Shown piece after piece: positions 5,730 through 35,144 of a stretch of 64,000 nucleotides of DNA. Source of the DNA: Convolutriloba macropyga (lineage: Eukaryota). The number at the start of each line of letters is the position of its first letter. Position 1 is the stretch's first letter. The stretch lies in contig NC_134475.1 of NCBI RefSeq assembly GCF_964194025.1, positions 372,001-436,000 of the forward strand, in the 5' to 3' direction. Position numbers and translations under genes: made by a program. The notes under the pieces were generated by a model, which was not told the DNA's origin, searched no databases, and worked only from the letters and a program-made list of their open reading frames with translations.

Positions 5730-7610
5730 CGAGGGTATAAAATTTCCCCAGGAATTTGATTGTAATATATGTTAATGACTTGCCCAAAACTTGCAAAGAC
5801 GTAAAATTTATTTTATTTGCTGATGATACTAACATTTAAGATGTTGGTTTGTGTTTTGAAAACATAAGCCTTGATTTAGAAAAAAAATTAATAATTGGCT
5901 AGAGTCAAATGGACTTGTTCTGAATTTAATCAAAACTATTCAATTGAATATGAAATCTTGTGTCCAAAACACGATCTTTTATCTAAACGAAGAGTGGATC
6001 AAAATGGAATCTAACTGCAGATAGACAGAAGTATTTCGGACTCTAAACTAGCTTAACGAATCCACAGTTCACCAATACCAGTAAAGTCAAAAATCAAATT
6101 TGTAGGTGTTACATTCGACAGGATGCTCAATTTCGGATAACATGTAAGAAGCTCCAAAGAAAAATTACAAAAACGCAATAACATACTGAAAAAGATTGCT
6201 GGTAGCGACTGGGGATGCACAAAAGAGACACACTCAGTGACTTGCAAAGCTATCGGTCAAAGCGTCCTGCCTACGGTGCTCCCATTTGGGCTTCCACAAT
6301 TAGCATTATAAACTGGAACCATCTGCAACTGCAACAAAATATTGCTCTTCGCACAATTACTGGCTATTTAAAAATGTCTGACATCAATGACTCACACAAT
6401 CGGGTTGAAATGCTGCCTGTCAACGCTCACACTGAAATGTTAGCAGAGCAATTCCTAGCTGGAAGGTAGCAGAGCCACCGTGCTGATCACGAAACAACCT
6501 CTTCAACCAGTCTTCGTCCCATGAGACCGACACTACATGATACTTATAGTAGGGACCTTGTGAAGCAACACAAACAATAAAGAGCAATTAAATCGCAAAG
6601 AATACCAAATTGCGCTCAAAAGTATCCAACGACACACGGTCGATACTCAGTTGAACAAAGACAGCAAGCAAATAGGTACACCTCCCACAAAGATAGCAGA
6701 AGAACAAACGTTGCCACGATTTGCACGTATCCGATTAGCATAACAGAACGGCATGCTGTCCCCTGCTAAACTCTTACTTGAGTAGGATCTGTAATAATGT
6801 TGATAACCGCTGTTCCAAATGTGATGTAGCGCCCAATGACGTAAACCACATTTTGAACTGCAGTAAGAGTACAACGAACCTGAAACTAATTGACCTGTGG
6901 GAAAGACCAGTAGAGGTAGCCAAATGGCTGGACTTAATCCCATCAGTCCTACACGACCGCACTGCACAGAATATTCCTCCTTCCTTGCCCTTTTACCCTG
7001 ATTTTGACGATGCCCCTCCTGGTCCCCCTAACTCAGAGACCGCGTGTCATTCATCAAGGCTGAAAGGTCGCCGCACCGCATGCAAGTTGTGGATAGGCAG
7101 TCACACAATACTACTAATACACCTACTGTTATTATGATACAAATGCAAACTAGGGTATCTGTTAAAAACGGTAACAAGCGCCTGTATCCCGCCAAAATTA
7201 CCAGCGAATTGCTGCTCTGCGACAGCTACAATAACAACAACTAAAAAGAATATGGTGTTTTTTTGAATTTAAGGAATTGTGTCACGAGAAGTAAATTAAG
7301 TGATTACTATAGAACAAAAATTTGTGCATTTATCTGTTACTGCTTTTTTGTATATGTATGGTGCAGTCATTTATCTTCAAAAGCTATTTTTGTTCATTAA
7401 AAAATATAAAACTATTACACTTCCGCAAAACAGGAACACATGTATCGATCTGTTTATCGAAGACTCGATTCTTTTGGTATATGAACTTCATATGTATGAG
7501 CTAGTAAAATTTGTTTTGAAATCAATAAACAGCCTTACAAAGTTTTTGCTCGAGCAATTTTGCAAAACTAAAATTGAGAGAAGCTCATTAGATTTCGTGG
7601 ACCAAAACTG
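5730..7610 (+). mobile_element. Degraded CR1/L2-like LINE RT fragment interrupted by a second LINE
   Basis: 5760-5940 reads IYVNDLPK...ILFADDTNI*...NNWLESNGLVLN (RT core, with stops and frameshifts). Degraded C-terminal LINE-like sequence resumes after about 7243. Confidence 0.6.
6046..7242 (+). mobile_element. 5'-truncated non-LTR retrotransposon (I/RTEX-like) with (ACA)n tail
   Basis: KFVGVTFDRMLNF..HV...LKKIAGSDWGCTKETL..YGAPIW...LQQNIALRTITG and a C-terminal CxxC..HIL.C zinc knuckle (6810-6860). Ends in ACAATAACAACAACT. Confidence 0.75.
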
Positions 7611-10600
7611 TACGATAAATGGAGACTACTTGGCGTTGTTACGTCTGAAGTTGAATATGCTGACCGAGCAAATAAGACTAATATTTGCCGTAAATTGAAA
7701 GAATCCTATCTAATCGAGAATTTTGAATTGATAATTTTTATATTCGGTGACTAAAAATCTAATATGGCAGATAATTCCAAGTTTTTTGTCTTTTCTTTTG
7801 AACTATGATTGTTGTGTATTTTTTTTGTACCTTAAATAGGATAATTTGCAAATGAAATCTTGATGCTTCCTTCGCTTATCCCCGCTTTTGATTGGTTCTT
7901 TATTAAAAAGCGAAATAATTTTTTTCTTAAATCTTCAAAGGAAGACAATAGTAAAATTGAAATAGCATTTTTTTTCAAAAAAAATTGAAATGGCAATTTC
8001 TGGTACTTGTACGAGGATCAACTCACAGTCTTTGTACAAGAATCATTTTTGGTTTTATTTTATTTCTAGCTTGTTTGTGAATAAGACCATTAGTTGACTT
8101 CGGAAAAATTCAAAACCATTTTCACGGGTTCTGGCAAAGTAGCATTTAAGAACTTGCAATTGCAAAAAATTTTTTAGTTTTCACGTTTTTCCCAAATCTT
8201 TCATACCCGTTAAGACCAATATGATCATTAATTGACTAATATGAATGTATTCTAATGTGAACGAAAATATCAGAAATTTTGGAATATGGACTAATAATAC
8301 TATAATTTCCTATTTTTTGAAAATTTGTACCGAATCTCTTAATATTTGTCAGGCTTTTTAATGTTCAATTTATATTCAAAGGGGTTGCCTGCTTGAATTA
8401 TAGGTTGTGGAAATGTTGTTTTTATTCAGGAAATTATCTAAAAATTTAGTTCTCTAACAGACCGAAAGCGATTGGACGCGTTATTGTTTCAAAATTTACC
8501 CCCGTGAAGCAGTCCATTGTTGTTTAATGTTTCATAGTTTTCATATCTGTTTTCAACTGTTTCTGCTTTGGTGTTCTCAGGCACGATTTGAAAGCACTGG
8601 CGTCAAAGACAAATCTAATAATATTTTTTTAAAGTCAAGCCTGATTTGTTTAGTTTTTCAATAATTGTGCATCTTTATAAACTTAATTAAAAAATTAAGA
8701 ATTAAATATATTCAAATTTTTTTTCATCAAATTTAAATTTTAAATCAAACAAGATTGCTCGTGCGAGTCTGTGCTTAGCACACTATGTTCCAACATACCT
8801 CTCAAGTTTGCAAAAATGACCATTAATTTCTGTTTGAGAAACCGTTCAAAAGCAAATTAAATGCATTGGAAAAAAATTACTTCTATTGTTTGAACAAAAA
8901 AATGTGCTTTTTTTCGGCAGACAAAATCGAAGACTCTCTAGCGCATTCTAGAAAGACAAGTTTGGTACAATTTCGAAGACACGGACACAGATAAGCCCCA
9001 CTAACACACTACACATATTACACACACACACATAGAAACCAAAGAACAACTTTAAAAAATTTTTTTTCTTTGGCGATTCATCTTTATTCAAGATTCGTCA
9101 CTTTTCATTTACGTCTTCCTGGCGTTTTCTATTTAACTACCTCTGGGCTTTTTGAGCTGATGATATCGGTAATTGTAATTTGGCACCCAAACTTTGCTAT
9201 GAACTTTTCAAAACTTTTCAAAAAATTTGGTCATGTTTGATGTTTCATGAGCATAATGAAACGATCTGATTTTTTAAGATCTCACAGATGTGTTAACAGC
9301 GAGATATGAAAAACTTGTTTTTGAATTTTGGTCTTATTTATATTTGAACTTGCAATTTATAAGATATTTTATGAAGTTTTTTTATGATTTCTGACAGTTT
9401 TTCCAATCTGCCTCTATTGGTGTGCAACATTTAAGTGAACTTAATCTCTCTCTAAGTCTCTCTCCCTATCCTTCTCACATACACTCATTACACATACACA
9501 CGCACTCAGATACGCAGATGCATACACTCAAACTTGCGCAAGGCACGCACACACAAAGACAAACCACGACACCAAAAAATTTTTTTTTGTAGAAATTTAG
9601 GTGTGGACTTCCTGAGGCAATTGTAATATTGACAAAAAATCTAAACTCATTTTTGATTTTTTTCCAAAATTTCTTCATTTCTGATGTTTCATCAGCATAA
9701 TTGGCCAAATTGTTATTAAAATTGTGCAGCGGCGTTATCAACCTGTTTCAGGAAACAAATTTTTGTTCTAAAGATACTTAAAAAGGCCATTTGTATTAAA
9801 TATAAAGTAATTTTTTTCCAAATTTTTAAACATTTCTGACAGTGTTTGCACTCTGTCTCTACTTGTGTCAAACATTTGAGGTAACGTTTAAGGCTTTCCT
9901 TGAGGGCTATTAATTTGTAGCATTAAGGAAATTTAGTTATCAGTAAATTATTTCACGCCTCTGTGTTTTCACACTTCGGAGCATTTTCAAAGAACCAGAG
10001 AATTTGAATAGTTGTTATGTGAGTTGAAAAAGATGAGAAAGTTTTTTGTCTTTCAAAAAACTTTCTCCGTTTATTTTTTTATGACGACGTTCACAATCAG
10101 TAAACTTTTTAGTTTTATTTTACCAAACGGCCCAAAACTTGCCACAGACTGGAAAAGATAAGTTTGCAGAGCAATTCCAAGACGCAGAGAACTGAAAAAT
10201 ACATTTCTAATTTTCTAAACAAAAATTATAAGCATTTGTATTATTTTTTTGGCCTGGCGATCCATAATCTCGCCAACTCTCAATTTTTTCGAAGATGTTA
10301 GAGGAGGTTAGTTTGAACGATTTTCTCCGACAGTTTAACGTATACAGATAAAAAAATCAATCCATCTTTTCGATAAATAATTTAGTTGATTTGGTGATGA
10401 TTCCATGAACCCGGCTTTTGTTTTACCTCTTGGCGGTTTTCAGCTGCTAAAATGGTTAGATCTGATGAAATAAGAAGTATATTTTGCTAAATCAGCGCTA
10501 GAATTTAGAGAAAAAAGTACATTTTTTTTCTTTTTAGTTTTTCATTTTCGAAGTTTATTTTTGCTGTTTTGGGAGCCCTCAATTGCCTGAAATCTTCAAT

Positions 10601-11787
10601 TTTCCAGCAAATCGTTTCGATACAGAGAATCATTGTTTCCTGCAATCGTTTTACTCAGCAGAAAACAGAGAGACGGATAAATAAATACACAAAATTTTGA
10701 GAAAAAAAAACAGAACATTTGATTTTTTCCCGAAATTTTAGATCAAATAGTTAAAATTCTTAATGGCTTGAAAGTATTAAGATTTTCTCGAGACAATCAC
10801 AACTCCATTTCATCTACCTAAGTTTACAACAAATTCTTCAACATTTTTTTTTTAATTTTAATAAATTTTTTGATCTTGGTTTGACATTTTTAAAGTTTAT
10901 TTTTGCTATTTTAGGAGCCCTAAATTTCGTGGCGTCTTCTTTTTCCTAAAAATCTGTTTGATATAGAAAAGAATTTTTTACAATAACTTTTAATCAGCAG
11001 AAAACGGAGACACTGAAAATAAAATTTTTCAGCGAAATTTTGAGCAAATTTTTTTTTCTTTTTTTTGTCAAATAGTTAAAATCATTTTGTTAGGCTTCAA
11101 TTTGTAAAGAATTAATCGTGACAATCAGAACTCAATTCAACCTAAGTAAATTTGCTGCAAATTTTTTAAATTGTTTTTATATAACTCAATTTCAACGCGA
11201 TCTGCCACCCCCAGCCCTGGAGCGATGTTTTTTTCTTTTCCCATTTTTCTTTTAATATTTTAAATTCTCCCCTTTTCAAATTTTTATTATTTTTTATATT
11301 AAACAAAACTAGGTCTTGAGGGCAACAAAATCGTGTTTTCCTTTATTTTCTCTGCGATGCGTAAACAAAAAATGAAATATTGACTAAAGAAGCCAGCCTC
11401 GCATATTTATTCCCAAGTTAAATTTTTTTATAGTCCAAGTTAAAAGAAAACAAGTTAAATTTTTTTTATTGTCCAAAGTAGGAAAGCAAACTGTTTAAGT
11501 TGTCAATTGCCCACAAATTTTGTTTATACTGACTCGGTAGAAAGAGGGTATAAAATCAAACCAATTTAAGAACTTCCAGAATGACGGTCCGGAAAATAAC
11601 CACAGCGAAATTAACCTTAAGATAATGCCTCCTCGGCTTTTTTTTGATGTTCACTTTTAAACTGAAAAAATCAACATTGTGAATTCAAACATCAATGTAA
11701 AGACATTTTCTAGTTGAAGCATAAAAACCCTCTTAAACTATTCTTGTGATGGGAAAATGGACAACGGTTACTTCCAATGGCCTTCAG

Positions 11788-12549
11788 TGTTCAAACGTGG
11801 AATTGGCCAATAATTTGCTGCATTTTAAATCATCTCAATTCGAACGAGAGTAGCCTAAAAGACTGCGACTTCAACTCGACCAATATCTTTAATTTCATCC
11901 GATATCTTGTCATTTATTTCAAGCCATCTGCAAACTTTTTCAGTCAGGAGACGTTTTCCGAGTTCGACAAAGAAAATGAAAAACGTCATAAACAAATCGG
12001 ATATCGACACACTCTCCATTCCAAAGTTGAGGCCGGAAAACTGCTGTTTCAATTTTTAGCTGCAAACTACGGAACAGACACTGTAAACCTCAGCCGAGGT
12101 GGCAGCCAAATAATTGAACTTGACGAACTGTCTCTAAGAGGAAGCGCGCAGGCTAGGAATAGTTTTTTTCTATCAGAAGTTAAAACTGGTCAAATGGCAG
12201 CTCAAGCGGAAATTCTGTTCAAAGACGTGGCTGATCAAATAGAAAGCGCTACGTCCCCATTAGCGCCGTCAACGGCTGCCGCGACGTTTCTTTCTGCATT
12301 TTCATCTGAAAATTTAGAAGATTCGTTTAGTCAATTGTATTTTATTTTCATTGGGAATTTGTCGACATATTGCAGACGCTCTGTTTTGGAAGATTTTAAT
12401 ATACTAGACAACTTCATTACCCTTTTGTTAACCGGTGATAATGAGATGTTGTGTAAATTGATCATTGCGTGTATGCCATATAGCGGACATTTGGGTGGAT
12501 CGGAATGTTCCCAGCTGTTGGAAGTTGTTACTATGACGTCAGAATCAAG
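11788..12549 (+). CDS. RICTOR: RICTOR exon (Rictor_M region), copy 1
   Basis: VQTWNWPIICCIL and FIRYLVIYFKPSANFFS resemble Rictor WNWxxI and FxRRLxxFYKPS. Acceptor ccttcAG ends at 11787, donor AAG|GTACTA. 762 nt, phase 2-2. Confidence 0.85.
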
Positions 12550-15500
12550 GTACTAATTAGTTTTGTTTTTGGAAACTTTACTTCATGCAATGATTTACAC
12601 ATATTATCCCTGGGCCAAATGCATCATGTTTTCAACGCATCATGTCCAATTAGGAACTTTATGATCTTTTTATCTTTTTTGTAGGATAAATGGAGACTAC
12701 TTGGCGTTGTTACGTCTGAAGTTGAATATGCTGACCGAGCAAATAAGACTAATATTCGCCGTAAATTGAAAGAATCCTATCTAATCGAGAATTTTGAATT
12801 GATAATTTTCGTATTCGGTGACTAAAAATCTAATATGGCAGATAATTCCAAGTTTTTTGTCTTTTCTTTTGAACTATGATTGTTGTGTATTTTTTTTGTA
12901 CCTTAAATAGGATAATTTGCAAATGAAATCTTGATGCTTCCTTCGCTTATCCCCGCTTTTGATTGGTTCTTTATTAAAAAGCGAAATATTTTTTTTCTTA
13001 AATCTTCAAAGGAAGACAATAGTAAAATTGAAATAGCATTTTTTCAAAAAAATATTTGAAATGGCAATTTCTGGTACTTGTACGAGGATCAACTCACAGT
13101 CATTGTACAAGAATCATTTTTGGTTTTATTTTATTTCTAGCTTGTTTGTGAATAAGACCATTAGTTGACTTCGGAAAAATTCAAAACCATTTTCACGGGT
13201 TCTGGCAAAGTAGCATTTAAGAACTTGCAATTGCAAAAAATCTTTTAGTTTTCACGTTTTTCCCAAATCTTTCATACCCGTTAAGACCAATATGATCATT
13301 AATTGACTAATATGAATGTATTCTAATGTGAACGAAAATATCAGAAATTTTGGAATATGGACTAATAATACTATAATTTCCTATTTTTTTGAAAATTTGT
13401 ACCGAATCTCTTAATATTTGTCAGGCTTTTTAATGTTCATTTATTAATGTTCATTTTTTTAATGTTCATTTATTTTTTTTAAAGTCAAGCCTGATTTGTT
13501 TAGTTTTTCAATAATTGTGCATCTTTATAAACTTAATTAAAAAATTAAGAATTAAATATATTCAAATTTTTTTTCATCAAATTTAAATTTTAAATCAAAC
13601 AAGATTGCTCGTGCGAGTCTGTGCTTAGCACACTATGTTCCAACATACCTCTCAAGTTTGCAAAAATGACCATTAATTTCTGTTTGAGAAACCGTTCAAA
13701 AGCAAATTAAATGCATTGGAAAAAAATTACTTCTATTGTTTGAACAAAAAAATGTGCTTTTTTTCGGCAGACAAAATCGAAGACTCTCTAGCGCATTCTA
13801 GAAAGACAAGTTTGGTACAATTTCGAAGACACGGACACAGATAAGCCCCACTAACACACTACACATATTACACACACACACATAGAAACCAAAGAACAAC
13901 TTTAAAAAATTTTTTTTCTTTGGCGATTCATCTTTATTCAAGATTCGTCACTTTTCATTTACGTCTTCCTGGCGTTTTCTATTTAACTACCTCTGGGCTT
14001 TTTGAGCTGATGATATCGGTAATTGTAATTTGGCACCCAAACTTTGCTATGAACTTTTCAAAACTTTTCAAAAAATTTGGTCATGTTTGATGTTTCATGA
14101 GCATAATGAAACGATCTGATTTTTTAAGATCTCACAGATGTGTTAACAGCGAGATATGAAAAACATGTTTTTGAATTTTGGTCTTTTGAATTTTTGAATT
14201 TTAAATTTATATATGAACTTGCATTTTATAAGATTTCTTATGAAGTTTTTTTATGATTTCTGACAGTTTTTCCAATCTGCCTCTATTGGTGTGCAACATT
14301 TAAGTGAACTTAATCTCTGTCTAAGTCTCTCTCCCTATCCTTCTCACATACACTCATTACACATACACACGCACTCAGATACGCAGATGCATACACTCAA
14401 ACTTGCGCAAGGCACGCACACACAAATACAAACCACGACACCAAAAAATTTTTTTTTGTAGAAATTTAGGTGTGGACTTCCTGAGGCAATTGTAATATTG
14501 ACAAAAAATCTAAACTCATTTTTGATTTTTTTCCAAAATTTCTTCATTTCTGATGTTTCATCAGCATAATTGGCCAAATTGTTATTAAAATTGTGCAGCG
14601 GCGTTATCAACCTGTTTCAGGAAACAAATTTTTGTTCTAAAGATACTTAAAAAGGCCATTTGTATTAAATATAAAGTAATTTTTTTCCAAATTTTTAAAC
14701 ATTTCTGACAGTGTTTGCACTCTGTCTCTACTTGTGTCAAACATTTGAGGTAACGTTTATGGCTTTCCTTGAGGGCTATTAATTTGTAGCATTAAGGAAA
14801 TTTAGTTATCAGTAAATTATTTCACGCCTCTGTGTTTTCACACTTCGGAGCATTTTCAAAGAACCAGAGAATTTGAATAGTTGTTATGTGAGTTGAAAAA
14901 GATGAGAAAGTTCTTTGTCTTTCAAAAAACTTTCTCCGTTTATTTTTTATGACGACGTTCACAATCAACAAACTTTTTAGTTTTATTTTACCAAACGGCC
15001 CAAAACTTGCCACAGACTGGAAAAGATAAGTTTGCAGAGCAATTCCAAGACGCAGAGAACTGAAAAATACATTTCTGATTTTCTAAACAAAAATTATGAG
15101 CGTTTGTATTATTTTTTTGGCCTAGCGATCCATAATCTCGCCAACTCTCAATTTTTTCGAAGATGTTAGAGGAGGTTAGTTTGAACGATTTTCTCCGACA
15201 GTTTAACGTATACAGATAAAAAAATCAATCCATCTTTTCGATAAATAATTTAGTTGATTTGATGATGATTCCATGAACCCGGCTTTTGTTTTACCTCTTG
15301 GTGGTTTTCAGCTGCTAAAATGGTTAGATCTGATGAAATAACAAGTATATTTTGCTAAATCAGCGCTAGAATTTAGAGAAAAAAGTACATTTTTTTTTCT
15401 TTTTAGTTTTTCATTTTCGAAGTTTATTTTTGCTGTTTTGGGAGCCCTCAATTGCCTGAAATCTTCAATTTTCCAGCAAATCGTTTCGATACAGAGAATC

Positions 15501-16656
15501 ATTGTTTCCTGCAATCGTTTTACTCAGCAGAAAACAGAGAGACGGATAAATAAATACACAAAATTTTGAGAAAAAAAAACAGAACATTTGATTTTTTCCC
15601 GAAATTTTAGATCAAATAGTTAAAATTCTTAATGGCTTGAAAGTATTAAGATTTTCTCGAGACAATCACAACTCCATTTCATCTACCTAAGTTTACAACA
15701 AATTCCTCAATATTTTATTTTAAATTTCAATAAATTTTTTGATTTTGGTTTGACATTTTTAAAGTTTATTTTTGCTATTTTAGGAGCCCTAAATTTCGTG
15801 GCGTCTTCTTTTTTCCTATAAATCTGTTTGATATAGAAAAGAATTTTTTACAATAATTTTTAATCAGCAGAAAACGGAGACAATGAAAATAAAATTTTTC
15901 AGCGAAATTTTGAGCAAATTTTTTTTATTTTTTTTTGTCAAATAGTTAAAATTATTTTTTTAGGCTTCAATTTATAAAGAATTAATCGTGACAATCAGAA
16001 CTCAATTCAACCTAAGTAAATTTGCTGCAAATTTTTTAAATTGTTTTTATATAACTCAATTTCAACGCGATCTGCCACCCCCACCCCTGGAGCGATGTTT
16101 TTTTCTTTTCCCATTTTTCTTTTAATATTTTAAATTCTCCCCTTTTCAAATTTTTATTATTTTTTATATTAAACAAAACTAGGTCTTGAGGGCAACAAAA
16201 TGGTGTTTTCCTTTATTTTCTCTACGATGCGTAAACAAAAAATGAAATATTGACTAAAGAAGCCAGCCTCGCATATTTATTCCCAAGTTAAATTTTTTTA
16301 TAGTCCAAGTTAAAAGAAAACAAGTTAAATTTTTTTTATTGTCCAAAGTAGGACAGCAAACTGTTTAAGTTGTCAATTGCCCACAAATTTTGTTTATACT
16401 GACTCGGTAGAAAGAGGGTATAAAATCAAACCAATTTAAGAACTTCCAGAATGACGGTCCGGAAAATAACCACAGCGAAATTAACCTTAAGATAATGCCT
16501 CCTCGGCTTTTTTTGATGTTCACTTTTAAACTGAAAAAATCAACATTGTGAATTCAAACATCAATGTAAAGACATTTTCTAGTTGAAGCATAAAAACCCT
16601 CTTAAACTATTCTTGTGATGGGAAAATGGACAACGGTTACTTCCAATGGCCTTCAG

Positions 16657-17418
16657 TGTTCAAACGTGGAATTGGCCAATAATTTGCTGCATTTTAAATC
16701 ATCTCAATTCGAACGAGAGTAGCCTAAAAGACTGCGACTTCAACTCGACCAATATCTTTAATTTCATCCGATATCTTGTCATTTATTTCAAGCCATCTGC
16801 AAACTTTTTCAGTCAGGAGACGTTTTCCGAGTTCGACAAAGAAAATGAAAAACGTCATAAACAAATCGGATATCGACACACTCTCCATTCCAAAGTTGAG
16901 GCCGGAAAACTGCTGTTTCAATTTTTAGCTGCAAACTACGGAACAGACACTGTAAACCTCAGCCGAGGTGGCAGCCAAATAATTGAACTTGACGAACTGT
17001 CTCTAAGAGGAAGCGCGCAGGCTAGGAATAGTTTTTTTCTATCAGAAGTTAAAACTGGTCAAATGGCAGCTCAAGCGGAAATTCTGTTCAAAGACATGGC
17101 TGATCAAATAGAAAGTGCTACGTCGCCATTAGCGCCATCGACGGCTGCCGCGACGTTTAATTCTGCATTTTCATCTGAAAATTTAGAAGATTCGTTTAGT
17201 CAATTGTATTTTATTTTCATTGGGAATTTGCCGACATATTGCAGACGCTCTGTTTTGGAAAATTTTAATATACTAGACAACTTCATTACCCTTTTGTTAA
17301 CCGGTGATAATGAGATGTTGTGTAAATTGATCATTGCGTGTATGCCATATAGCGGACATTTGGGTGGATCGGAATGTTCCCAGCTGTTGGAAGTTGTTAC
17401 TATGACGTCAGAATCAAG
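16657..17418 (+). CDS. RICTOR: RICTOR exon (Rictor_M region), copy 2
   Basis: Same exon with intact splice sites. Four amino-acid differences from copy 1 (V/M, L/N, S/P, D/N). Confidence 0.85.
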
Positions 17419-17562
17419 GTACTAATTAGTTTTGTTTCTGGAAACTTTACTTCATGCAATGATTTACACATATTATCCCTGAGCCAAATGCATCATGTTT
17501 TCAACGCATCATGTTGTCCAATTAGGAACTTAGGATCTTTTTATTAACGAATTAACATCTGA

Positions 17563-17690
17563 AGTAGTGGATAAAGCAAGGGATTCAACCACCAGCAAAA
17601 TTTGTCCCTTTCTCCTAACGCTAATCGCGCATGTCGAATCAGGCCAAATTTTACTGTTTGTTGAATCCCTTGTTTTATCCACTACTATAT
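17563..17690 (+). repeat. Left terminal inverted repeat (internally palindromic)
   Basis: Reverse complement of 37887-38014, with 2 mismatches by my reading. Confidence 0.95.
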
Positions 17691-18296
17691 TCACCACTAT
17701 TAATACATACTACACGCACAATTTTGTGTACAAAAATGTACATAGCTAGTATAATTTATGCAAATCATACACTAATATCCAAAAGTTCTCAAAGCTAGAT
17801 TTAAGCCTAATTTCATATCTAATATGTCAAACTATACTGAAATAAATCAGGTTAATCATCTCACAAATTTTTTTTTTTCAATAGAATCGGATGGACTGAA
17901 AATAACTCAAAATTGCTTAGAACTGGATAATAAGAAACAAGTTTCTTTAAAATTTTGACTTTAACCGGGAGACGATTGATCTATGATGTTTAACTGAGTG
18001 ATTCTATGTACCTGGTTTTTGAGCCGAGTCTTGGGAGGTCTTGTTAAAAGGTTGACTCGCCTTTAGCACGCTACGGCAGTACTGCTCGACCTTTCTTAAT
18101 GGCAACTGTGGGGGAGGGTGCAACTACAGAATGCTTGAACACTTAATTTTAATTATTAGGCTGACTGAAGTCTAATATTAAGCTAACTGAACAATATTAA
18201 TGTATCATTTGTAGGGATATCAATATTAATATTATTATTAAATATATTTCTGAATAATCAATCACTCATTTATCATTTCTGAAATTTGTAATTCTG

Positions 18297-18989
18297 TCAT
18301 ACACCTAGATTGTAGCTGGCTATCCTTCTGAACTTCTGCCAAAAACATTGTAAGGAACTTTTCCATTCTGAGTAGTAGTCTGTTGAGACTAGGATCCTGG
18401 GATAGCTTTCACATGCTTGAGAGAAGTTGATATAACTCTGGATGGTAGAGTAGGAATATCCTTTATCGTTCAGTAGTTTTTTCCAGGGAATATCCTTATT
18501 GTTTTCTTGATGGTCTTGTTTCACTTTCCCCCATATGTATCCTCTGTCAGAAATTGTCAGTAGATATAAAAGATTCAGCTTTCCCTCCATGTTATTGACT
18601 GTGGTGAGATAAGACTCAAATTCACCAATATTGAGTGAACTCCTGAGTTTATTGTGGAAAGATAAATATTCCGGCACATTCACTTCAAACTTGTCCAGTG
18701 TTTCCTGATGCTCGTAACTTAGTAGGTCCTTCTTGAACTTGGAGAGGAACAACTGGAAGAGTTCTGTTTTAGTTCGTTTTCCAGTCTCAGTTTCATGTTC
18801 GGCGGTGTTGTCGGGTATGCATTTGTTCTCCTTACAAAATGTAATCATTTGATTTGTTAAATTAGTCAACTCGTTTATATTCTCTTCAGATAAAGAAGTG
18901 GATGATAAAGCGCCAGTTATTAAAGTCTCGTCAAATGACGAAAGTTGTTTAAAATTTTTCGCTAGTTTTTGTAGTGAAGTGAAACTCAT
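18297..18989 (-). CDS. Polinton orphan protein, possible C-terminal helix-turn-helix
   Basis: Open frame with likely ATG at 18989 (MSFTSLQK). WKKLL..GYSYSTIQSYINF..YPRIL is HTH-like. Family not recognised. Confidence 0.55.
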   Translation of the reverse strand: MSFTSLQKLAKNFKQLSSFDETLITGALSSTSLSEENINELTNLTNQMITFCKENKCIPDNTAEHETETGKRTKTELFQLFLSKFKKDLLSYEHQETLDKFEVNVPEYLSFHNKLRSSLNIGEFESYLTTVNNMEGKLNLLYLLTISDRGYIWGKVKQDHQENNKDIPWKKLLNDKGYSYSTIQSYINFSQACESYPRILVSTDYYSEWKSSLQCFWQKFRRIASYNLGV

Positions 18990-19042
18990 GATGAATAGAC
19001 AAAAAATGCCGTGGAGAATAAAGGTCCCCACGTGGAGAATTA

Positions 19043-19072
19043 TTCTAGAACATTCTTTTTTCTAGAATATTC
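19043..19072. promoter_or_regulatory. Two perfect heat-shock elements (nTTCnnGAAnnTTCn)
   Basis: TTCTAGAACATTC at 19043-19055 and TTCTAGAATATTC at 19060-19072, about 55-85 bp upstream of the ATG at 18989 (- strand). Confidence 0.5.
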
Positions 19073-19474
19073 TCACATGATTTTTAACTTAAAATTAGTT
19101 ATCATTTCCCAAGTAATTACATGTTTTAAAGTAAAATAATAATTAAATCCTTCTATTAAATTGAATGATTTGTATAATCTATTAAAAATTAAATAAAGAT
19201 TTTAATAAATAGTCACTTTACTAGCTAATTTTTAAGGGTATCTTATATTCGAAATTTTCACTTGTTTTCATTCTGTTAGTGGTGGCGGCTTTCTTTGTCA
19301 ATGGCGGCGGCCATTTTAGCATGACATGCACTTTTCATTCGATCTGCTAAGCACTGTAATGCGATGTTAAACCAAGCTTGTTGACTTCTTGTACTATTAG
19401 TGGTTGCTAAATATGAAAGAAAGCGAACAATAATAGCACAGTCAAAAACACTGAGATCGGTGGAAACACAGTGA

Positions 19475-19849: not shown

Positions 19850-22800
19850 ATGTCTCAATCAACTAATACTAGTGTCATAAACTTCTGCGATGTCTGTAAT
19901 CTATCCTTTGAATCAAAGAAGGGTTTATACAGACACCAATCTTATGATCTCAAACATAAGGAACTATTGGAGAAAATGTTTGAGTCTGAAGAAGAAGAAA
20001 TCTTGGAGAGGGTGTATAATCCGGATGAATATGATTATATTATTAAAACTAGGGCTAAAACTAAAACAGAAACTAAATCAGAAACTGAAACTGAAAACAA
20101 TATCTATTCTAAGATTAGGTTTATATGTAAAGAATGTCATGAAGAATTTGGAAGTAAAGTAGCTCTAACTACTCATTCATATAGTCACAATCGCATGTAT
20201 CTAGAAAACACAAAAGACTTCGATATAAACTCAAGTCAGAACATGAGAGAATTTTATATTACTGATAAAGGTGGGAATTACATTGAAGATATAGATGAAG
20301 CAACTAATTACTCTTTAGAAGAAATTAAAAACTGTTACCAGTTTCGTAAAGTTAAGAGTTTTAAATATAAGATCACGGCTGAATGTGATTATAAGAAGAG
20401 AACCAAAGAAGAAGTTAAAACTACTAAAATATTTTTCAATACTGATTATATTAATAATAATGCTATATATGAATATGGTGACTTCAATCGGTGGCTAGAT
20501 TTCGAAAAGGAAATATATGAAGGTTATGGTTATGATTTTGAGTTTCTTGGAATAAGTATTCAGTTAAACATTGAACCAACTGAAGCATCTATTGGTAGTT
20601 ATATAGATTTACCTCCTGATCTCAAAAACTCTAAATCGATATTAAATATACGTAGTTATAAATACAACTGCTTACAACTAACTATAACTGCTTGGCTACA
20701 TCCCGCCCCACACCATGCAACTCGAGAAAGTAAATATGTAGATAAACTAATTGAACCAAGACAACAACATGAAGATGATTTTGCTTATATAATAAGAATA
20801 CAGAAATTGTATAATATTAATATTTGGTTATACACACCTTGTGGTAATGGTAAAATAGAATTGTTTAAACAAGTGGTTGATTTTAATAAAGATAGAAAAG
20901 ATGTAAGAATACTAGTTTGGAGTAATGGTCAAATAGAACACTGTGCCCTAATAAAAAATATAGAAACCTTGTTAGAACGACCAAATGAAAACAACATTAA
21001 ATATTATTATTGTGATAGGTGTACCTATTGGTTTAACTCACAAATTAAATATGATAAACACGAATGCAGCACCTCATTCAAACCAGAGATTGTTTGTCCT
21101 AAGAAAAAACATATTACTTTTATAAATGAACACAAACGTCAGAATATAAAAAATATTTTAACTGCCGATATAGAATGTTGCATTGTTGAAATCTCAACTA
21201 ATGACTGTAAATATGTAATAGCTGAACATATTCCAATAGCTGTGGGTTACACCTGGCAAGGTAACTTCAAACACTACTTTGGTCTAGGCTGCATCAAAAG
21301 ATTTGCTAGAGATCTATTAGAAATAGAAACTGAGAATAATTTCAAACATAATGAAAAGATGATATTCACAGAAGAAGATAAATTATATCATGAAACTAAT
21401 AACACTTGTCATATCTGCAGCAAAACATGTATTAATAAAGTAAGAGATCATTGTCATGAAACTGGTAAATATAGAGGACCAGCATGTAAATTATGTAATC
21501 TAAGATACAAACAACAAAACTTCATTCCAGTAATATTCCATAATGGCTCTGGCTATGACTTCAACCTACTATACAGTGAACTCTTCAAACAGAATAATGA
21601 TAAAAGAAAAGTGGATAACTTACCACTAGCTGTTGGTAAGTCTAAGATGTTTAGCATTGGTTGTCTTAAATTCTTAGATAGTTATAACTTCTTAGCTATG
21701 CCCCTAGATCAAATGGCAAAGATATATGGGTGTAAAACTAAAACATTATATCCATATGAATACTTTGGTTTAGACTCCTTGGGAACCACGACAAAGTCGT
21801 ATAATAATCTTATAGGTAATCTAAAAAGAGAAGACTTCAAATCCTCTCTACATAATAAATTACCAACACAAGAAGATGTCGATATCTTTAATAAAGACAA
21901 CAGTCATAAAACTGGTAAAGATCTAACTATAGAGTATTTACAAAATGATGTGGAAATATTAGACTACTGCATGAATGAATATGTTAAACTAAGTATGAAA
22001 GAATTCAAGCTTAACCCACTACATTATGTAAGTCTCCCAGGTTATAGTTTTGATTGTTGGTTAATGTCAAGCGGTGTAACATTAGATACATTGCAAGATA
22101 AACAAATGCTAGATGATTTTGTTGGAGCAAAGAGAGGTGGTATATGTGGAATAATGGGAGATAGATATATAGATAACAGTGATGGTAAGACCATATGGTA
22201 CATAGACGCAAACGACCTATATGGTTATGCAATGATGCAAAAGTTACCTTATAAGGATTTTGAGTTTATTTCTACTACTACTCTAGATGTAATATTGAAT
22301 ACTCCAGATGATAGTGATCACGGTTACTATATAGTTTGTGATATTGATTATACTAATGAATGTAAAGAGAGAACAGAACAGTTAGCACTAATGCCTAATA
22401 AGAGAAAGATAAATGATAATGGATTGGGATATCGACAAAGAGAGAAAAGTAAAGCAAGATCCGAGAAATTAATCTTAGACCAAAACAACAAAACAGAATA
22501 TATGGTTTATTATAGGATATTAAAGTTCTATGTTAAGATGGGAGTAAAAGTAACAAAAATACATAGAGTAATTAAATTTAAACAAGACTACATATGTAGA
22601 GATTATATACAAAACAATACAAATAAAAGAGCAACAGCTAAAACTGAAGCAGAAAAGGATGTAAGGAAATTAATGAATAACTCATTATATGGAAGAATGT
22701 GCATGAATCCTCTACACTTCTTTCAAAGTAAGTTCTTGCATGATGAAGAAAAGATAATGAAAAGTGTAAGTAAACCAACATTTAAGAATATAACTAGATA

Positions 22801-23550
22801 TAGAGATTATAGCCAAATAGAATATATAAAGAAAAAATAGAATATGATTCTCCAGTATATGTAGGTGTTACTATCTTAGAATAAAGTAAATTACACATGT
22901 ATGATGTATTCTATAATATTCTACAACCATCCCTCAAAGATCTAACACTTCACTATATGGATACGGACAGTTTCGTATTAAATTATAGTGAAGGTAAAGT
23001 TAGTGATGAGCATATGGACTTAAGTAATCTAGACATACCTATAAAAACTAATAATAAAGTCCCCGGCAAGTTTAAGCACGAGCTGGGAAGTAGGATTATT
23101 GAGGAATTTATAGTATTGTCCCCCAAAACATATAGCTTCAAAAATTATCCTAAAAACACTAAAGAAAAAGGAATAAAGAAGAATAATAATGCTAGGCACA
23201 TAGATTATTATGATGCATTAATGAATAATACACAGAGAACAATAGATGAACGTAGAATACAAAAAGTTGGTGATAACATGACAACAACAAAAATAAGTAA
23301 GATTAGTCTAAACACATTTGATGATAAAAGATTTTATGTAAATAATATTAAAAGCTATCCTCATGATGAGAATCTATATCTATTCAAAAGAGATTTAATA
23401 AAAATGATCCACCAAGCATCAGTGAAACTGCTTCGCAGATCATTAGATGGAGACAAAGACCTACTGGTTAATAATATTCTAGAACTAACCATTAATGATG
23501 ATAGAAAGTTAATTGAAGTTGCTATTATATTATATAATGAGCTTTGCTAA
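19850..23550 (+). pseudogene. Protein-primed family B DNA polymerase (pPolB), disrupted
   Basis: N-terminal C2H2 fingers, vOTU-like NCLQLTITAWLHP...HCALIK, exonuclease ADIEC and FHNGSGYD, Endonuclease VII-like CHIC..VRDHCHETGKYRGPACKLCN, and polymerase motifs DANDLYG, KLMNNSLYGR, YMDTDS. Frameshift in an A-run near 22835 and in-frame TAA at 22882-22884. Confidence 0.95.
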
Positions 23551-24834: not shown

Positions 24835-25743
24835 ATGACTACGTCCATCAGGGAACCTGCTTCGCAGATGACTATGTCCATAAATAAAACGTTAGAAAAA
24901 CAACAACAACAACTAGCTAAAGAAGTATTCAGTCCTCAAATAACAAAGTTTAAAAGACAAAGAATAATACCACTATATAAAGATGAAACATGGTCATCTG
25001 ATTTAATTGATGAGTCATCTCTAAGTAAATACAATAATAATTATAAGTTTATATTAACAGTTATAGATATATTCACAAAATATGCATGGGCTATTCCTTT
25101 AAAGAATAAATCTGGTTTATCTATAACTAATGGTTTTAAAACAATCCTATCAGAAGGACGAAAACCAGAAAAATTATGGGTAGATAGAGGTAGTGAGTTT
25201 TACAATCAAACATTTAAATCTTCACTTAAAGAATATGGAACCGGCAAAGCCGCTTCAGGGATAGAGCTATATTCTACTTATAATGATTTAAAGGCTGTGT
25301 TTATAGAGAGATTTAATAGAACATTATTACACGTAATAAATAAACCAATGTTCATCAATGGAGATGGTAATTGGGTAAATATATTAAATGATGCTGTTGT
25401 AACATATAACAATAACATTCACTCAACAATTAATATGACACCAGTTGATGCTTCTAATAATCCTGATAAAGTTAAATACACTTTTAGTTTTAAGAATATT
25501 AAGGGTAAACTTAACGTTGGTGATTATGTTAGAAATGTAGATAAACGTTATATCTTCTCTAAAGGTTACACTTCTAATTGGAATAGAGAATTGTTTAAAG
25601 TGAATGAAGTTCTAAAAACACATCCACCAACATATGAAATAGAAGATATTAATGGAGAGATAATAGAAGGCAAATATTATGTACAGGAACTATTGAAATC
25701 TGAGTTTGCTTTTGAATCTAATAATAAAGTTTTAGAATCATAA
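24835..25743 (+). CDS. Retroviral-type (rve) DDE integrase
   Basis: WSSDLID, ILTVIDIFTKYAWAIPLKNK, LWVDRGSEF, IERFNRTL, and FSKGYTSNW typical of Polinton integrases. Confidence 0.95.
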   Translation: MTTSIREPASQMTMSINKTLEKQQQQLAKEVFSPQITKFKRQRIIPLYKDETWSSDLIDESSLSKYNNNYKFILTVIDIFTKYAWAIPLKNKSGLSITNGFKTILSEGRKPEKLWVDRGSEFYNQTFKSSLKEYGTGKAASGIELYSTYNDLKAVFIERFNRTLLHVINKPMFINGDGNWVNILNDAVVTYNNNIHSTINMTPVDASNNPDKVKYTFSFKNIKGKLNVGDYVRNVDKRYIFSKGYTSNWNRELFKVNEVLKTHPPTYEIEDINGEIIEGKYYVQELLKSEFAFESNNKVLES

Positions 25744-25764
25744 ATATATTTCTTAAAATAAATA

Positions 25765-26469
25765 ATGACAAGAAACAGATTCAATCAAGCGAAACATCAT
25801 ATAGGGAATGGAAACAACTTAACACTAAGTAAGGCTCGTGGGTTATTCCTAGAAGATAATGATGATATTGATATGAAGGATACCTGTAAAATTACAAATG
25901 TTCATCCTCCTAGAGATGAAAAAGATGTTGTTAATAAAGAGTATTGTGACAATAACTTATTATCCTCTTCTAATAAAATAGACATTTTAAGTAGAAACAT
26001 AACTGAACTAGGAAAGGGTGACTTTGATAAAGTTACAACTAAAACATTACAACTAAATGAAACACAAGTTAATGAAGAACTAATTAATGAGTTTATTGAA
26101 TCAACAAATGAAGTCAGAAATACTGTTAAGTTTTGTAATAAAGTTGCTGCGGATACTATCTCTAAATATAATCAATTAAAGCAAGAATTTGATAATAATA
26201 AGTTTAATCAGAATATAACTAACATACAACCAGATGAAATGTTTACTAACGGTCTGAGAGAAATGAAAGAATACAATAAATCTCTTAGAGGTGTTATAGT
26301 ACAATATATAATTGCTATACTTTTGCAAAGTAAGTTATTTGATAATAAAGAGAAAGACAGACTTGAGATGCATTATAGTTTTAATCAAGAAGATATAACG
26401 AAAGAAATAGAAAGAATTTTTACTAATAAAAATAAGCAAAGCAATGACCAATCCAACAGCACCGAATGA
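25765..26469 (+). CDS. Fibre/stalk-like coiled-coil protein, copy 1
   Basis: IDMK..KITNVHPP..EKDVVNKEYCD resembles the IxNxxxPxxxxDAxNKxYVD neck motif of viral fibres and trimeric adhesins. Confidence 0.6.
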   Translation: MTRNRFNQAKHHIGNGNNLTLSKARGLFLEDNDDIDMKDTCKITNVHPPRDEKDVVNKEYCDNNLLSSSNKIDILSRNITELGKGDFDKVTTKTLQLNETQVNEELINEFIESTNEVRNTVKFCNKVAADTISKYNQLKQEFDNNKFNQNITNIQPDEMFTNGLREMKEYNKSLRGVIVQYIIAILLQSKLFDNKEKDRLEMHYSFNQEDITKEIERIFTNKNKQSNDQSNSTE

Positions 26470-26990
26470 GAGATTACTATATCCAGATTTGTCATCAGTA
26501 TCAGAAAGATTGATAAACGAAAAGATTCAAGCTAATAATAAATTTAACAACAATATTAACATTATAAAAGATATTAGAAATTATTATGAAACTGAAACTA
26601 ATAACTATAATAAGAAGTTAAGTAGATATAAGAATTATATTAACATAGCTGAGATAACAGAAATAGTATTATCATCAATAGCAACAACTGCAACAACAAC
26701 ATCAGTTTCATTAACAGGTATAGGATCAGCTTATTCTGCACCAACAGCTTTTGCTACAGCAACTGTGTGGTTCATTATCAAAAACAATTGATACTAAAAT
26801 TAGAAATAAAATTATAAAGTATTCACAAATGTATATTTTAAGTAAACAGTTTAGTGATAAGTTTAATAAACTATATACTAAATCAATGAATGATAATAAA
26901 ATAGATAATGATGAGTATAATGAATTTGTTAAGTTATATGAGGATTATAAGAAGAATAAGAAAAACAAGCTGAGTATTTTTTTAGATTAA
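26444..26990 (+). pseudogene. Putative membrane-active protein (adintovirus GasderminX-like), frameshifted, copy 1
   Basis: Two overlapping ORFs join through a frameshift near 26765. Central small-residue hydrophobic stretch and C-terminal KSMNDNKIDNDEY motif. Confidence 0.55.
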
Positions 26991-27218
26991 AGATATTGGT
27001 GTTTAGTAATAACAATGTTTTTAGTAATAATAATATTAGTATTAATATTTATCCGCGAACAGACTTCGTCTGTGGCAAGCCAGGCGGTTACACCGATCAG
27101 GGAACCTGCTTCGCAGATCGATAAATATATAATCATAATCATAGCTATAATCATAATCATAAACATAATCATGGATATAATCATGGATATAATCATAATC
27201 TTAATCATAATCAAATAT

Positions 27219-27638
27219 TTATCTTTTCTTTGTACCTAAGTATAACCCTCTACCTTTTTGTACTACCTTTATACCTTCACCAGTAGTTGCAAATTTAATT
27301 AAATCAGGTGTAGCCGCTAGAGCTGCTTTAGGGTTTCTAGATGCAGCTGCACTTCCTATTTTACTTGCTATTTCTAATGCTCTTCCTGGATTATTAGCAA
27401 CTTTCTTTCCAAAGTTAACTGTAGCCCTACCAACACTTTTAAAGAAATCTTTAAGCCCTTCTGCTTCTATTGTTGCATCAGATACTGTCATTGATTTATT
27501 CCTTCTACATAAAACACAATTACCTTTTAACATTTTAGTACCTTTTGAAGTGATAGCTCCTCTTATATTAACAGTACCACTATAATGTCTACTTCCAACA
27601 CAATATAAATTAGTTTTGAACTTATTTAAAAGACTCAT
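27219..27638 (-). CDS. DUF5679-like zinc ribbon plus amphipathic putative membrane-lytic core protein, copy 1
   Basis: YCV....T.KG..MLKGNCVLC..NKS, followed by GLKDFFKSVGRATVNFGKKVA and KGRGLYLG. Confidence 0.65.
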   Translation of the reverse strand: MSLLNKFKTNLYCVGSRHYSGTVNIRGAITSKGTKMLKGNCVLCRRNKSMTVSDATIEAEGLKDFFKSVGRATVNFGKKVANNPGRALEIASKIGSAAASRNPKAALAATPDLIKFATTGEGIKVVQKGRGLYLGTKKR

Positions 27639-27656
27639 TTCTATATATAAAAAATA

Positions 27657-27806
27657 ATGGAAGTTAAAAAGTATAATCCTTTTGTTGTTATTAAACCCAA
27701 GCCCAAGCCCAAGGTTAAGCTTGAAGCTAGAGGCTTGGCTCTAGAGAATAAAAAGAAATTAGACATTATTTTCGCTAAAGGTTTTGTTAATACTAATAAG
27801 AAATAG
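27657..27806 (+). CDS. Unannotated 49-aa basic protein (putative core protein), copy 1
   Basis: MEVKKYNPFVVIKPKPKPKVKLEARGLALENKKKLDIIFAKGFVNTNKK*, preceded by TATATAAAAAATA. Below the ORF-track length cut-off. Confidence 0.55.
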   Translation: MEVKKYNPFVVIKPKPKPKVKLEARGLALENKKKLDIIFAKGFVNTNKK

Positions 27807-28008
27807 TTGGGTGTTAACAAGAATAACAAAAGTAACAATTAGAGCTGACTAGCTATAAGTATAAGTATAAGTATATGGTTATGTATATAATTATAACAAT
27901 AACTATATTATACTATAATTATAAATTATCGCTAGAGTTATATCTAAAATTATAATTATCGCTAGAGTTATATCTAAATTATAATCATATCTTTGACTTA
28001 AATTATAT

Positions 28009-29187
28009 CTATGATATTATGTCTACCATCTTATTACCATCACTATTCACACTAATAACCTTTCTAGTTAATACTAATGCATGACATATAACATCTGCAA
28101 CTGCAGCACTAAATTTAAAATTAAGTTGTAATGGTTGTGGACCTATATGATCCCTTTGATATCTAGCATCGAATACATATATTCTATAATTACTTTTGAA
28201 TAATCTATGATTTACATACGGTTTTATATTATGTGGTAGCCCATTATAATCTTTATTAAAGCTAACAATCTCTTTAAAAGCCTCATTATATTTATTGGTT
28301 CCGTAATTAATATTCATTCTATCCTCGGGATAAAACTCACTACCAATCTTACAATAACATTCAGTAACATTCATTACATCAAATGTACTTGCATCATGAG
28401 TTTGTTCATTAACATTATTATTTTCAAAACCAACTATTATATATTGCGGTCTTTCCATACCACTTTCTATACCTAGATCAAAGAAGAAGTTAGTAGCATT
28501 GGGTACATTCTTATAAAATGTCTTTCTTTCATAATAACTAAAGTCTACATTATTCTTTTTACTTAAACCCTTTTGCACAATAATTCTATTATCATTACTA
28601 GGATCAATACTAGGTACACACCATGATATATCTCTGATTTCTATATTACCATCATTAGCAACTGCACCAGGATTAGCATTAACTCTATATAGAGCTCTAT
28701 CATTATTATTCCTTTTTAATATTAGTTTAAATCCTAAACCATATATGATTTTTTCTAAATCATTTACGAAACCAAATAGATCACTCATCTTAATCATCAT
28801 ATACATATGTCCTCGTTGTGCAGCAATATGGTCACCTTTAAGTTGACTATCTCTATTGCCCTGATTTCTAACAAAACCACTCTCATATTCATCACCAATA
28901 CTAGTTAATAACTTATACATCAATAGATTAGGATGACAATGGTCTATATATTCAATAGTCCTACCACCACTAGTTTCAAGCTTAATTGAACTAAACAATG
29001 CCATCATACCATAATTAACTAATCTGATATTAGCATCATTAGCAAATACACCACCAGCATCATCTGATACAACAAACTCTATCTCTAGATATGAATCACG
29101 CAAATTTAAGTGATTCTCTTCTCTATTGAGAATGATATTAATATTAGTATTAACCGTATTCATTGTTGCTATATTATTAGGTTTATA
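28009..29187 (-). pseudogene. Major capsid protein, 5'-truncated duplicate
   Basis: Identical to the MCP at 31468-32712, but the true start is cut off by the duplication junction. Confidence 0.85.
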
Positions 29188-29223
29188 GTTTTAGAATCAT
29201 AAATATATTTCTTAAAATAAATA

Positions 29224-29928
29224 ATGACAAGAAACAGATTCAATCAAGCGAAACATCATATAGGGAATGGAAACAACTTAACACTAAGTAAGGCTCGTGG
29301 GTTATTCCTAGAAGATAATGATGATATTGATATGAAGGATACCTGTAAAATTACAAATGTTCATCCTCCTAGAGATGAAAAAGATGTTGTTAATAAAGAG
29401 TATTGTGACAATAACTTATTATCCTCTTCTAATAAAATAGACATTTTAAGTAGAAACATAACTGAACTAGGAAAGGGTGACTTTGATAAAGTTACAACTA
29501 AAACATTACAACTAAATGAAACACAAGTTAATGAAGAACTAATTAATGAGTTTATTGAATCAACAAATGAAGTCAGAAATACTGTTAAGTTTTGTAATAA
29601 AGTTGCTGCGGATACTATCTCTAAATATAATCAATTAAAGCAAGAATTTGATAATAATAAGTTTAATCAGAATATAACTAACATACAACCAGATGAAATG
29701 TTTACTAACGGTCTGAGAGAAATGAAAGAATACAATAAATCTCTTAGAGGTGTTATAGTACAATATATAATTGCTATACTTTTGCAAAGTAAGTTATTTG
29801 ATAATAAAGAGAAAGACAGACTTGAGATGCATTATAGTTTTAATCAAGAAGATATAACGAAAGAAATAGAAAGAATTTTTACTAATAAAAATAAGCAAAG
29901 CAATGACCAATCCAACAGCACCGAATGA
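29224..29928 (+). CDS. Fibre/stalk-like coiled-coil protein, copy 2
   Basis: Protein identical to 25765-26469. Confidence 0.6.
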   Translation: MTRNRFNQAKHHIGNGNNLTLSKARGLFLEDNDDIDMKDTCKITNVHPPRDEKDVVNKEYCDNNLLSSSNKIDILSRNITELGKGDFDKVTTKTLQLNETQVNEELINEFIESTNEVRNTVKFCNKVAADTISKYNQLKQEFDNNKFNQNITNIQPDEMFTNGLREMKEYNKSLRGVIVQYIIAILLQSKLFDNKEKDRLEMHYSFNQEDITKEIERIFTNKNKQSNDQSNSTE

Positions 29929-30449
29929 GAGATTACTATATCCAGATTTGTCATCAGTATCAGAAAGATTGATAAACGAAAAGATTCAAGCTAATAATAA
30001 ATTTAACAACAATATTAACATTATAAAAGATATTAGAAATTATTATGAAACTGAAACTAATAACTATAATAAGAAGTTAAGTAGATATAAGAATTATATT
30101 AACATAGCTGAGATAACAGAAATAGTATTATCATCAATAGCAACAACTGCAACAACAACATCAGTTTCATTAACAGGTATAGGATCAGCTTATTCTGCAC
30201 CAACAGCTTTTGCTACAGCAACTGTGTGGTTCATTATCAAAAACAATTGATACTAAAATTAGAAATAAAATTATAAAGTATTCACAAATGTATATTTTAA
30301 GTAAACAGTTTAGTGATAAGTTTAATAAACTATATACTAAATCAATGAATGATAATAAAATAGATAATGATGAGTATAATGAATTTGTTAAGTTATATGA
30401 GGATTATAAGAAGAATAAGAAAAACAAGCTGAGTATTTTTTTAGATTAA
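29903..30449 (+). pseudogene. GasderminX-like protein, frameshifted, copy 2
   Basis: Same frameshift as copy 1. Confidence 0.55.
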
Positions 30450-30677
30450 AGATATTGGTGTTTAGTAATAACAATGTTTTTAGTAATAATAATATTAGTA
30501 TTAATATTTATCCGCGAACAGACTTCGTCTGTGGCAAGCCAGGCGGTTACACCGATCAGGGAACCTGCTTCGCAGATCGATAAATATATAATCATAATCA
30601 TAGCTATAATCATAATCATAAACATAATCATGGATATAATCATGGATATAATCATAATCTTAATCATAATCAAATAT

Positions 30678-31097: not shown

Positions 31098-31115
31098 TTC
31101 TATATATAAAAAATA

Positions 31116-35060: not shown

Positions 35061-35144
35061 TTTTATATAATAAATTTATTAAATCTAAGTCTAATTATAT
35101 GTCTAAGTCTAAATCTAAATCAAATCTATATTTATTATATAAAA

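Follow-up and report, generated by a model that had tools for sequence, protein, structure and literature searches.

A fold-back terminus with an inner AGTAGT end in a Polinton and in unrelated pPolB elements

The window analyzed here (the whole stretch of 64,000 nt, to which coordinates refer unless a locus is named) carries a Polinton/Maverick element whose TIRs fold back on themselves and repeat the AGTAGT terminus at the inner end of the hairpin. This fold-back terminus is real, is found family-wide and recurs in unrelated pPolB elements.

A Polinton with fold-back termini

The ends of the element are organized as follows:

17557-17562, plus strand: left copy of the TSD (ATCTGA), 6 bp
17563-17686, plus strand: left fold-back unit with outer arm 17563-17607, loop 17608-17641 and inner arm 17642-17686, flush at ACTACT
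17687-17690, plus strand: ATAT, 4-nt tail completing the 128-bp TIR, common to both ends
37887-37890, minus strand: 4-nt tail of the right TIR
37891-38014, minus strand: right fold-back unit, same isomer as the left, 122/124 identical
38015-38020, plus strand: right copy of the TSD

The ATCTGA TSD of 6 bp brackets the whole 20,452-bp element. An earlier note, made from the sequence alone, had described a TIR of 124 nt in which 17563-17589 pairs with 17660-17686. This pairing is borne out with one G.T mismatch, and the 124-nt fold-back hairpin carrying AGTAGT at both ends stands; the TIR itself measures 128 bp and not 124, since the ATAT inside of the unit is common to both ends. A stem of 45 bp is likewise correct (40/45 paired), around a loop of 34 nt instead of about 33. 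The palindrome lies within the TIR and adjoins the TSD, and a terminal palindrome with a flush 3' end is present at both ends of the element. Folding of 17563-17686 as ssDNA confirmed the hairpin at -35.8 kcal/mol (z -10.5, 0/200 shuffles as good), and the right unit at 37891-38014 gave z -12.3 and -9.7 on its two strands. The 27-nt arm occurs four times in the window where none is expected (100 shuffles), and left and right TIR are identical at 126/128 positions.

Mismatches common to both window TIRs are absent from the 27 outer pairs and number five within pairs 28-46 (Fisher p about 0.009, for a boundary chosen post hoc). The right TIR had been described as flipped; however, the right unit is the plain reverse complement of the left. 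Since the loop and the five shared stem mismatches are oriented alike relative to their own end, both ends represent the same isomer. Neither window unit is surrounded by a TSD of its own (3/6 matches each), which together with the shared ATAT tail speaks against two MITEs inserted at both ends by chance, the case that the earlier note had set against its own reading. Against Rfam the unit scored at best 21.8 bits versus a cut-off of 100, with sub-threshold miRNA matches only.

The assignment of these ends to a Polinton proved correct, as pPolB, integrase, capsid, TIRs, (AGT)2 ends and a 6-bp TSD are all present. The element comprises the following features:

17563-38014, no strand: Polinton/Maverick element, 20,452 bp, about 17.0 kb minus the internal tandem duplication
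19850-23550 (19850-22840 and 22897-23550), plus strand: pPolB in two frames with a frameshift near 22835, N-terminal terminal-protein-like D1 and OTU D2, and an endonuclease VII-like insert
24835-25743, plus strand: rve integrase, D, D, E motifs by eye
25725-32656 (25725-29198 / 29184-32656), no strand: internal tandem duplication of 3.46 kb, 99.9% identical
31468-32712, minus strand: part of the element
32729-33571, plus strand: probable minor capsid protein, which we take it to be from position and size only, without Pfam match
34600-35028, minus strand: stop-interrupted remnant with approximate limits, presumably of an adenain-like protease, His/Asp/Cys motifs by eye
35025-36269, plus strand: A32-like packaging ATPase, stop-interrupted

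The Polinton is inserted in a RICTOR-like gene, the flanking ORFs being RICTOR-like in a Pfam scan that covered 26 window ORFs. A search with these RICTOR-like ORFs gave no significant relatives; going by the type of element, the host is probably an animal. The pPolB matches profile PF03175 (E 3e-27) and the double jelly-roll capsid PF21738 (E 4e-24); the integrase match to PF00665 lies just under the curated cut-off (E 1.7e-7) and that of the packaging ATPase to PF04665 is also under cut-off (E 1e-4). Capsid homologues numbered 461 among 2,284 candidates, with homologues at 75-95% identity, all from ENA, among the matches listed (120 of 461). The window copy is decayed, with a frameshift in pPolB and stops in the protease-like and ATPase frames. 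Similarity to the element was found nowhere else in the window, either at the nucleotide or at the protein level.

Some further details of the locus were recorded. The internal 3.46-kb duplication truncates one capsid gene copy; either it happened very recently or the assembly created it. On opposite strands lie two frames that resemble ATPases and carry Walker A motifs (33625-34857 and 35025-36269), the minus-strand frame being joined to that of the protease remnant via a low-complexity repeat. A GAAACTGCTTCGCAGAT-like motif, possibly a regulatory repeat, recurs in both orientations between 23411 and 35413 in the element, partly beside gene starts. Host DNA with RICTOR-like exons forms a tandem duplication of about 5 kb (window 7609-17544; 8624-12673 / 13474-17544 and 7609-8373 / 12680-13444, 98% identical), which stops 18 bp before the element and could represent either a true duplication or a haplotype left uncollapsed.

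Recurrence in sister copies and unrelated pPolB elements

Sister contigs from four runs of one organism and two studies (X1-X4) were aligned to 17300-19300. Summed depth on the first flank bins was 42-80. For X2-X4 it lay mostly at 10,000-85,000 in the interior and at 116,000-424,000 on the unit, and for X1 at 239-297 on the unit versus at most 94 in the interior. The element belongs to a large family with hundreds of copies. Summed depth on the unit is about 5-12x that of the interior where 2x is expected, summed contig depth not being copy number.

Sister copies without the inner repeat, the other case that had been set against the original reading, are not what the alignments show: the inner arm adjoins both interiors, continuing into the left interior in record 2 of X1 (five differences) and into right-interior sequence in seven contigs of X3 and two of X1. 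Two variants inside the unit, found among 40 of 109 variant rows, both make a stem mismatch a pair; these pairing states hold 64-91% and 95-99% of summed depth over the four runs and are thus the majority states. In six X2 contigs the loop sequence stands loose and reverse-complemented beside the inner arm. Either a flop isomer or copies with symmetric arms would give such contigs, which are ambiguous because the two arms cross-map in the sister-contig alignment. No strand-switch joint inside the unit was found among 15 of 27 joints. One contig in X1 joins the arm to 191 unrelated letters. As a side observation, a contig at single-copy depth in X3 and X4 leads from 18980 via 36 other letters to the unit end at 17563, probably one copy nested in another.

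For comparison beyond the family, a pPolB alignment search yielded 37 loci from viral sequences and 80 from metagenomes, with identities of about 30%; after a single-protein query and the addition of three stretches of known records, the set numbered 142 loci, of which 122 are non-redundant. In the first 117 loci, 2/35 pairs of AGTAGT...ACTACT spaced 50-400 nt apart have real arms (L068, score 14, and L079, score 12), the best of 584 such pairs in the shuffled control scoring 9. The 25 later loci contributed 1/9 pairs (L254, score 15). The hairpin at L068:5094-5177 (84 nt, z -8.6) follows pPolB and integrase and lies 23 nt from the contig end. That at L079:5891-5962 (72 nt, z -9.1) is found about 180 nt past the last pPolB frame, and the sequence beyond it is more GC-rich. 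L254:5614-5742 (129 nt, z -10.3, 19 perfect terminal pairs) lies 150 nt before an uninterrupted pPolB of 1248 aa, and the 5.6 kb before it hold no ORF of 100 aa. One end is visible in each of the three, so we call these hairpins terminal from their position.

Apex loops measure 3 nt in L079, 11 nt in L068 and 5-7 nt in L254. In these three and in the window unit, base 1 pairs with the last base and the inner arm is flush at ACTACT; the four share at most 8 nt with one another. No TSD of their own surrounds the fold-back units of L068, L079 and L254. The strand of the 3' end folds better in three of four oriented elements, with one tie. In a tree of 48 loci with weak deep support (49 of the 142 taken, L239 left out) the four elements are scattered and do not form one pPolB clade. 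The fold-back is dispensable, since the complete element L049 has AGTAGT at both ends and a 183-bp TIR without it, L036 has an AGTAGT end without it, and L002 has only a degenerate, imperfect one. As positives were sought as pairs and negatives only at visible ends, these counts give no frequency.

It is rather unlikely that such hairpins are a neutral by-product without a part in replication, in which a terminus duplicated by copy-back (template switch) was fixed in some families and then maintained through conversion between arms and between ends. A by-product would account for the patchy distribution, and copying that runs off a free end would likewise halt flush at ACTACT; it accords poorly with pairing that improves towards the terminus, with sister copies in which the paired states are in the majority, with a fold-back carried by hundreds of copies of one family, and with a similar size (72-129 nt) in unrelated elements. 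Recurrence of the design in three unrelated elements suggests that it helps in restarting end copying.

Pairs bounded by AGAGAG or ACACAC in pPolB loci scored at most 4 and 6, respectively (9 and 36 pairs). No exact match to the 27-nt arm was found in viral contigs, where the window integrase, the capsid alignment and the L068 polymerase, used as queries, also found no relatives. A scan for the pattern AGTAGTGG-N70-100-CCACTACT returned at least 120 viral stretches; two matches with real arms, on the same contig as a third, are unrelated repeats whose stems extend past AGTAGT on both sides. The inverted repeat of L031 was not counted, as its motif faces the opposite way.

Three other features were seen in the pPolB loci. 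At L080:3-251, the contig end of a pPolB element forms a 249-nt hairpin whose loop resembles a microsatellite; no AGTAGT is visible there. The TIR of the complete Polinton L049 (1-183 and 14869-15051) contains TTAGGG telomere-like repeats. L247-L262 are Polinton-type pPolB contigs in assemblies labelled bacterial or archaeal and are probably eukaryotic contamination.

Proposed priming at the fold-back terminus

We modelled residues 78-437 of the window pPolB (pLDDT 75). The resulting structure resembles OTU domains (Z 8.2, rmsd 3.4, 104 aligned) and, at a middling level, the little finger of Pol kappa (Z 6.3, rmsd 2.8, 91 aligned); among viral proteins, one from a Drosophila-associated adintovirus matches it best. 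Polinton terminal proteins have been described with a little-finger-like fold and a linking residue in the loop between helix 2 and the last strand (PMC11161782); the terminal-protein-like domain of the window pPolB has a Gly/Tyr loop at this same place. Judged from the model, terminal-protein-like and OTU folds are kept, which means that the protein-priming apparatus is retained. No Rep family, including HUH Rep, was found by Pfam among the 26 window ORFs.

Given that the terminal-protein-like domain is kept, that no Rep was found, that the best pairing is in the outer 19-27 bp and that both ends are one isomer, we tentatively favor the fold-back as a local stand-in for the long-range panhandle, giving protein priming its duplex origin, and regard this as quite possible though short of probable. 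A strand would become single when excised from the host or when displaced in strand-displacement replication. Its last 124 nt would snap back, with the 3'-terminal ACTACT pairing flush with the inner AGTAGT. The hairpin would thereby rebuild a duplex origin of about 27-45 bp locally, where otherwise the two TIRs must meet across about 17 kb. Terminal protein and pPolB would initiate opposite the 3' end, and copying would then run through stem, loop and interior without nick and without flip/flop. Copy-back at a free end is the probable origin of the unit itself, which TIR homogenisation would then have copied to the other end.

In energy the panhandle has the advantage (-157 kcal/mol, versus -77 for the two local hairpins together, leaving out loop entropy), so the local-origin model depends on kinetics, with local folding presumed to be faster. 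Other points count against it as well: the flush 3'-OH could equally serve as a DNA primer, and the stem might be preserved by conversion between its arms even if selection played no part. The six reverse-complement-loop contigs of X2, such as a flop isomer would give, also speak against it, as do L049 and L036, which lack the fold-back, and L002 with its degenerate one.

In rolling-hairpin priming as in parvoviruses, the folded 3' end would prime the interior, the closed end would be nicked just inside the inner AGTAGT and hairpin transfer would give flip and flop. We consider this unlikely but not negligible. Either a host nuclease or the endonuclease VII-like domain in pPolB could make the nick; PF02945 is present in the pPolBs of the window, L068 and L079, although this motif is widespread in the pPolB alignment and so unspecific to fold-back elements. 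Pairing almost to the apex in L079, L068 and L254 would suit a rolling hairpin, as would the loop sequence in the six X2 contigs. On the other side, 15 of 27 joints include no strand switch inside the unit. The 26 window ORFs include no HUH Rep, and terminal-protein-like and OTU domains are kept. The same isomer at both ends also speaks against hairpin transfer, weakly so, as it has a one-in-two chance of occurring anyway.

The geometry is like that of the AAV ITR, and AAV/parvovirus ITRs (PMC11575299) are described with a terminal palindrome of about 125 nt, a short unique stretch (D) common to both ends and a flush 3' end, as in the window. The window terminus differs in being a simple stem-loop instead of T-shaped, in its 4-nt versus 20-nt tail, in having no Rep and in the 6-bp TSD of its element. 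Streptomyces telomeres (PMC4513846) are comparable in that a terminal protein primes on a 3' single strand whose last bases fold onto an internal complement; they are bacterial, with an internal origin, end patching by Tap/Tpg and several short palindromes, and homology is not expected.

Hairpin priming has also been proposed for elements of Halocafeteria seosinensis, where endogenous virophages (subtypes 1, 2, 5, 6) and PLV subtype 4 are reported to carry terminal palindromes within their TIRs, adjoining the TSDs, preferentially with non-pPolB replicases (bioRxiv 10.64898/2026.07.28.741278). The window element resembles these in its palindrome in the TIR beside the TSD and in its rve integrase. 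The palindrome in the example shown there is 52 nt with a gap limit of 10, whereas the window, L068, L079 and L254 have imperfect hairpins of 72-129 nt with a full inner AGTAGT; we infer that this limit would miss a 34-nt loop. Contrary to the association in the preprint, all four encode pPolB, that of the window with terminal-protein-like and OTU domains.

In other respects the element conforms to the published descriptions of Polinton/Maverick elements (vertebrate Mavericks, PMC8097293; alpha-type adintovirus PolB, PMC8502044): a PF03175-type pPolB with OTU, rve integrase, double jelly-roll capsid and ATPase, (AGT)2//(ACT)2 ends, a 6-bp TSD and a TIR length within 46-1,447 bp. Unlike in these, its TIR is self-complementary with the terminus repeated internally. 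The strings 'hairpin' and 'palindrom' have 0 occurrences in the main text of PMC8097293, PMC10748475 and PMC8502044, and no description of self-complementary TIRs in pPolB Polintons was found in the full-text literature, with Repbase and subscription papers outside its scope. Hairpin priming has thus already been proposed for protist virophages and PLVs, whereas the fold-back with inner AGTAGT in pPolB Polintons appears to be new. Terminal palindromes, reported mainly from protist elements that lack pPolB, are thereby extended to Polintons that encode it.

Two papers call direct evidence for panhandles still lacking (PMC11886824) and terminal protein removal before integration unclear (PMC11161782). 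The fold-back bears on Polinton excision, conversion to double strand and restart of the displaced strand. An asymmetric loop in a terminal hairpin records the mechanism: one orientation would indicate panhandle-like protein priming, two orientations hairpin transfer. With hundreds of copies in one host, loop orientation is readable from a long-read assembly.

A second unit and AGTAGT-bounded mini-elements

Near its end the window holds a second fold-back unit:

63471-63558, no strand: second, different 88-nt AGTAGTGG...CCACTACT fold-back unit, 19 perfect terminal pairs, z -8.9
63585-63599, minus strand: 15/15 match to the arm of the first family, 26 nt inward of the second unit

No TSD of its own surrounds the 63471 unit, and no Polinton gene occurs in the 440 nt after it. 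Together, 63471-63599 may be the left end of another family running out of the window.

The earlier note had also suggested that 124-bp mini-elements could be released. A mini-element bounded by AGTAGT with a 6-bp TSD does exist, in another organism: L091:292-456 is a solo AGTAGT...ACTACT insert of 165 bp flanked by a perfect 6-bp TSD. It lies 540 bp upstream of a pPolB ORF and is absent from a paralogous repeat downstream. Such minis can accordingly be integrated. A perfect TSD was seen in 1/35 pairs versus 1/584 shuffled, which alone is modest evidence, and the insert has short arms and a weak fold (z -2.3). Replication outward into host flanks, likewise raised, is unsupported, as an inner AGTAGT in duplex DNA is not a free end. 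In the flank duplication next to the element, the end of the first copy carries no fold-back unit.

Each unit might itself be a complete miniature Polinton with two integrase-competent ends; such minis would be mobile by themselves, and one would have been captured to give the element new ends, with the inner ends still usable. The L091 insert, absent from the nearby paralogous repeat, is what one would expect of such a composite, even if its short arms, weak fold and modestly supported TSD reduce its value. The unit's excess of summed depth over the expected 2x points the same way, with the reservation that summed contig depth is not copy number, and so do the X1 contig joining the arm to 191 unrelated letters, the 63471 unit with no Polinton gene in the next 440 nt and a TIR barely longer than the unit. 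No TSD flanks the window units, the 63471 unit or the units of L068, L079 and L254, and we consider a composite origin improbable.

Hybrid origins in scattered protein-primed Polintons would combine these readings: a hairpin-primed second strand and flip/flop resolution would exist beside terminal-protein priming, and inner AGTAGT ends would release integrase-mobilised minis of 70-170 bp. This, too, we hold to be unlikely, though worth keeping in mind; if true, adenovirus-like and parvovirus-like end replication would be joined in one replicon. The fold-back terminus also points to a source of miniature Polinton derivatives. A host repeat of 178 bp at 40202-40379, MITE-like with 31-bp inverted arms, is unrelated to the Polinton.
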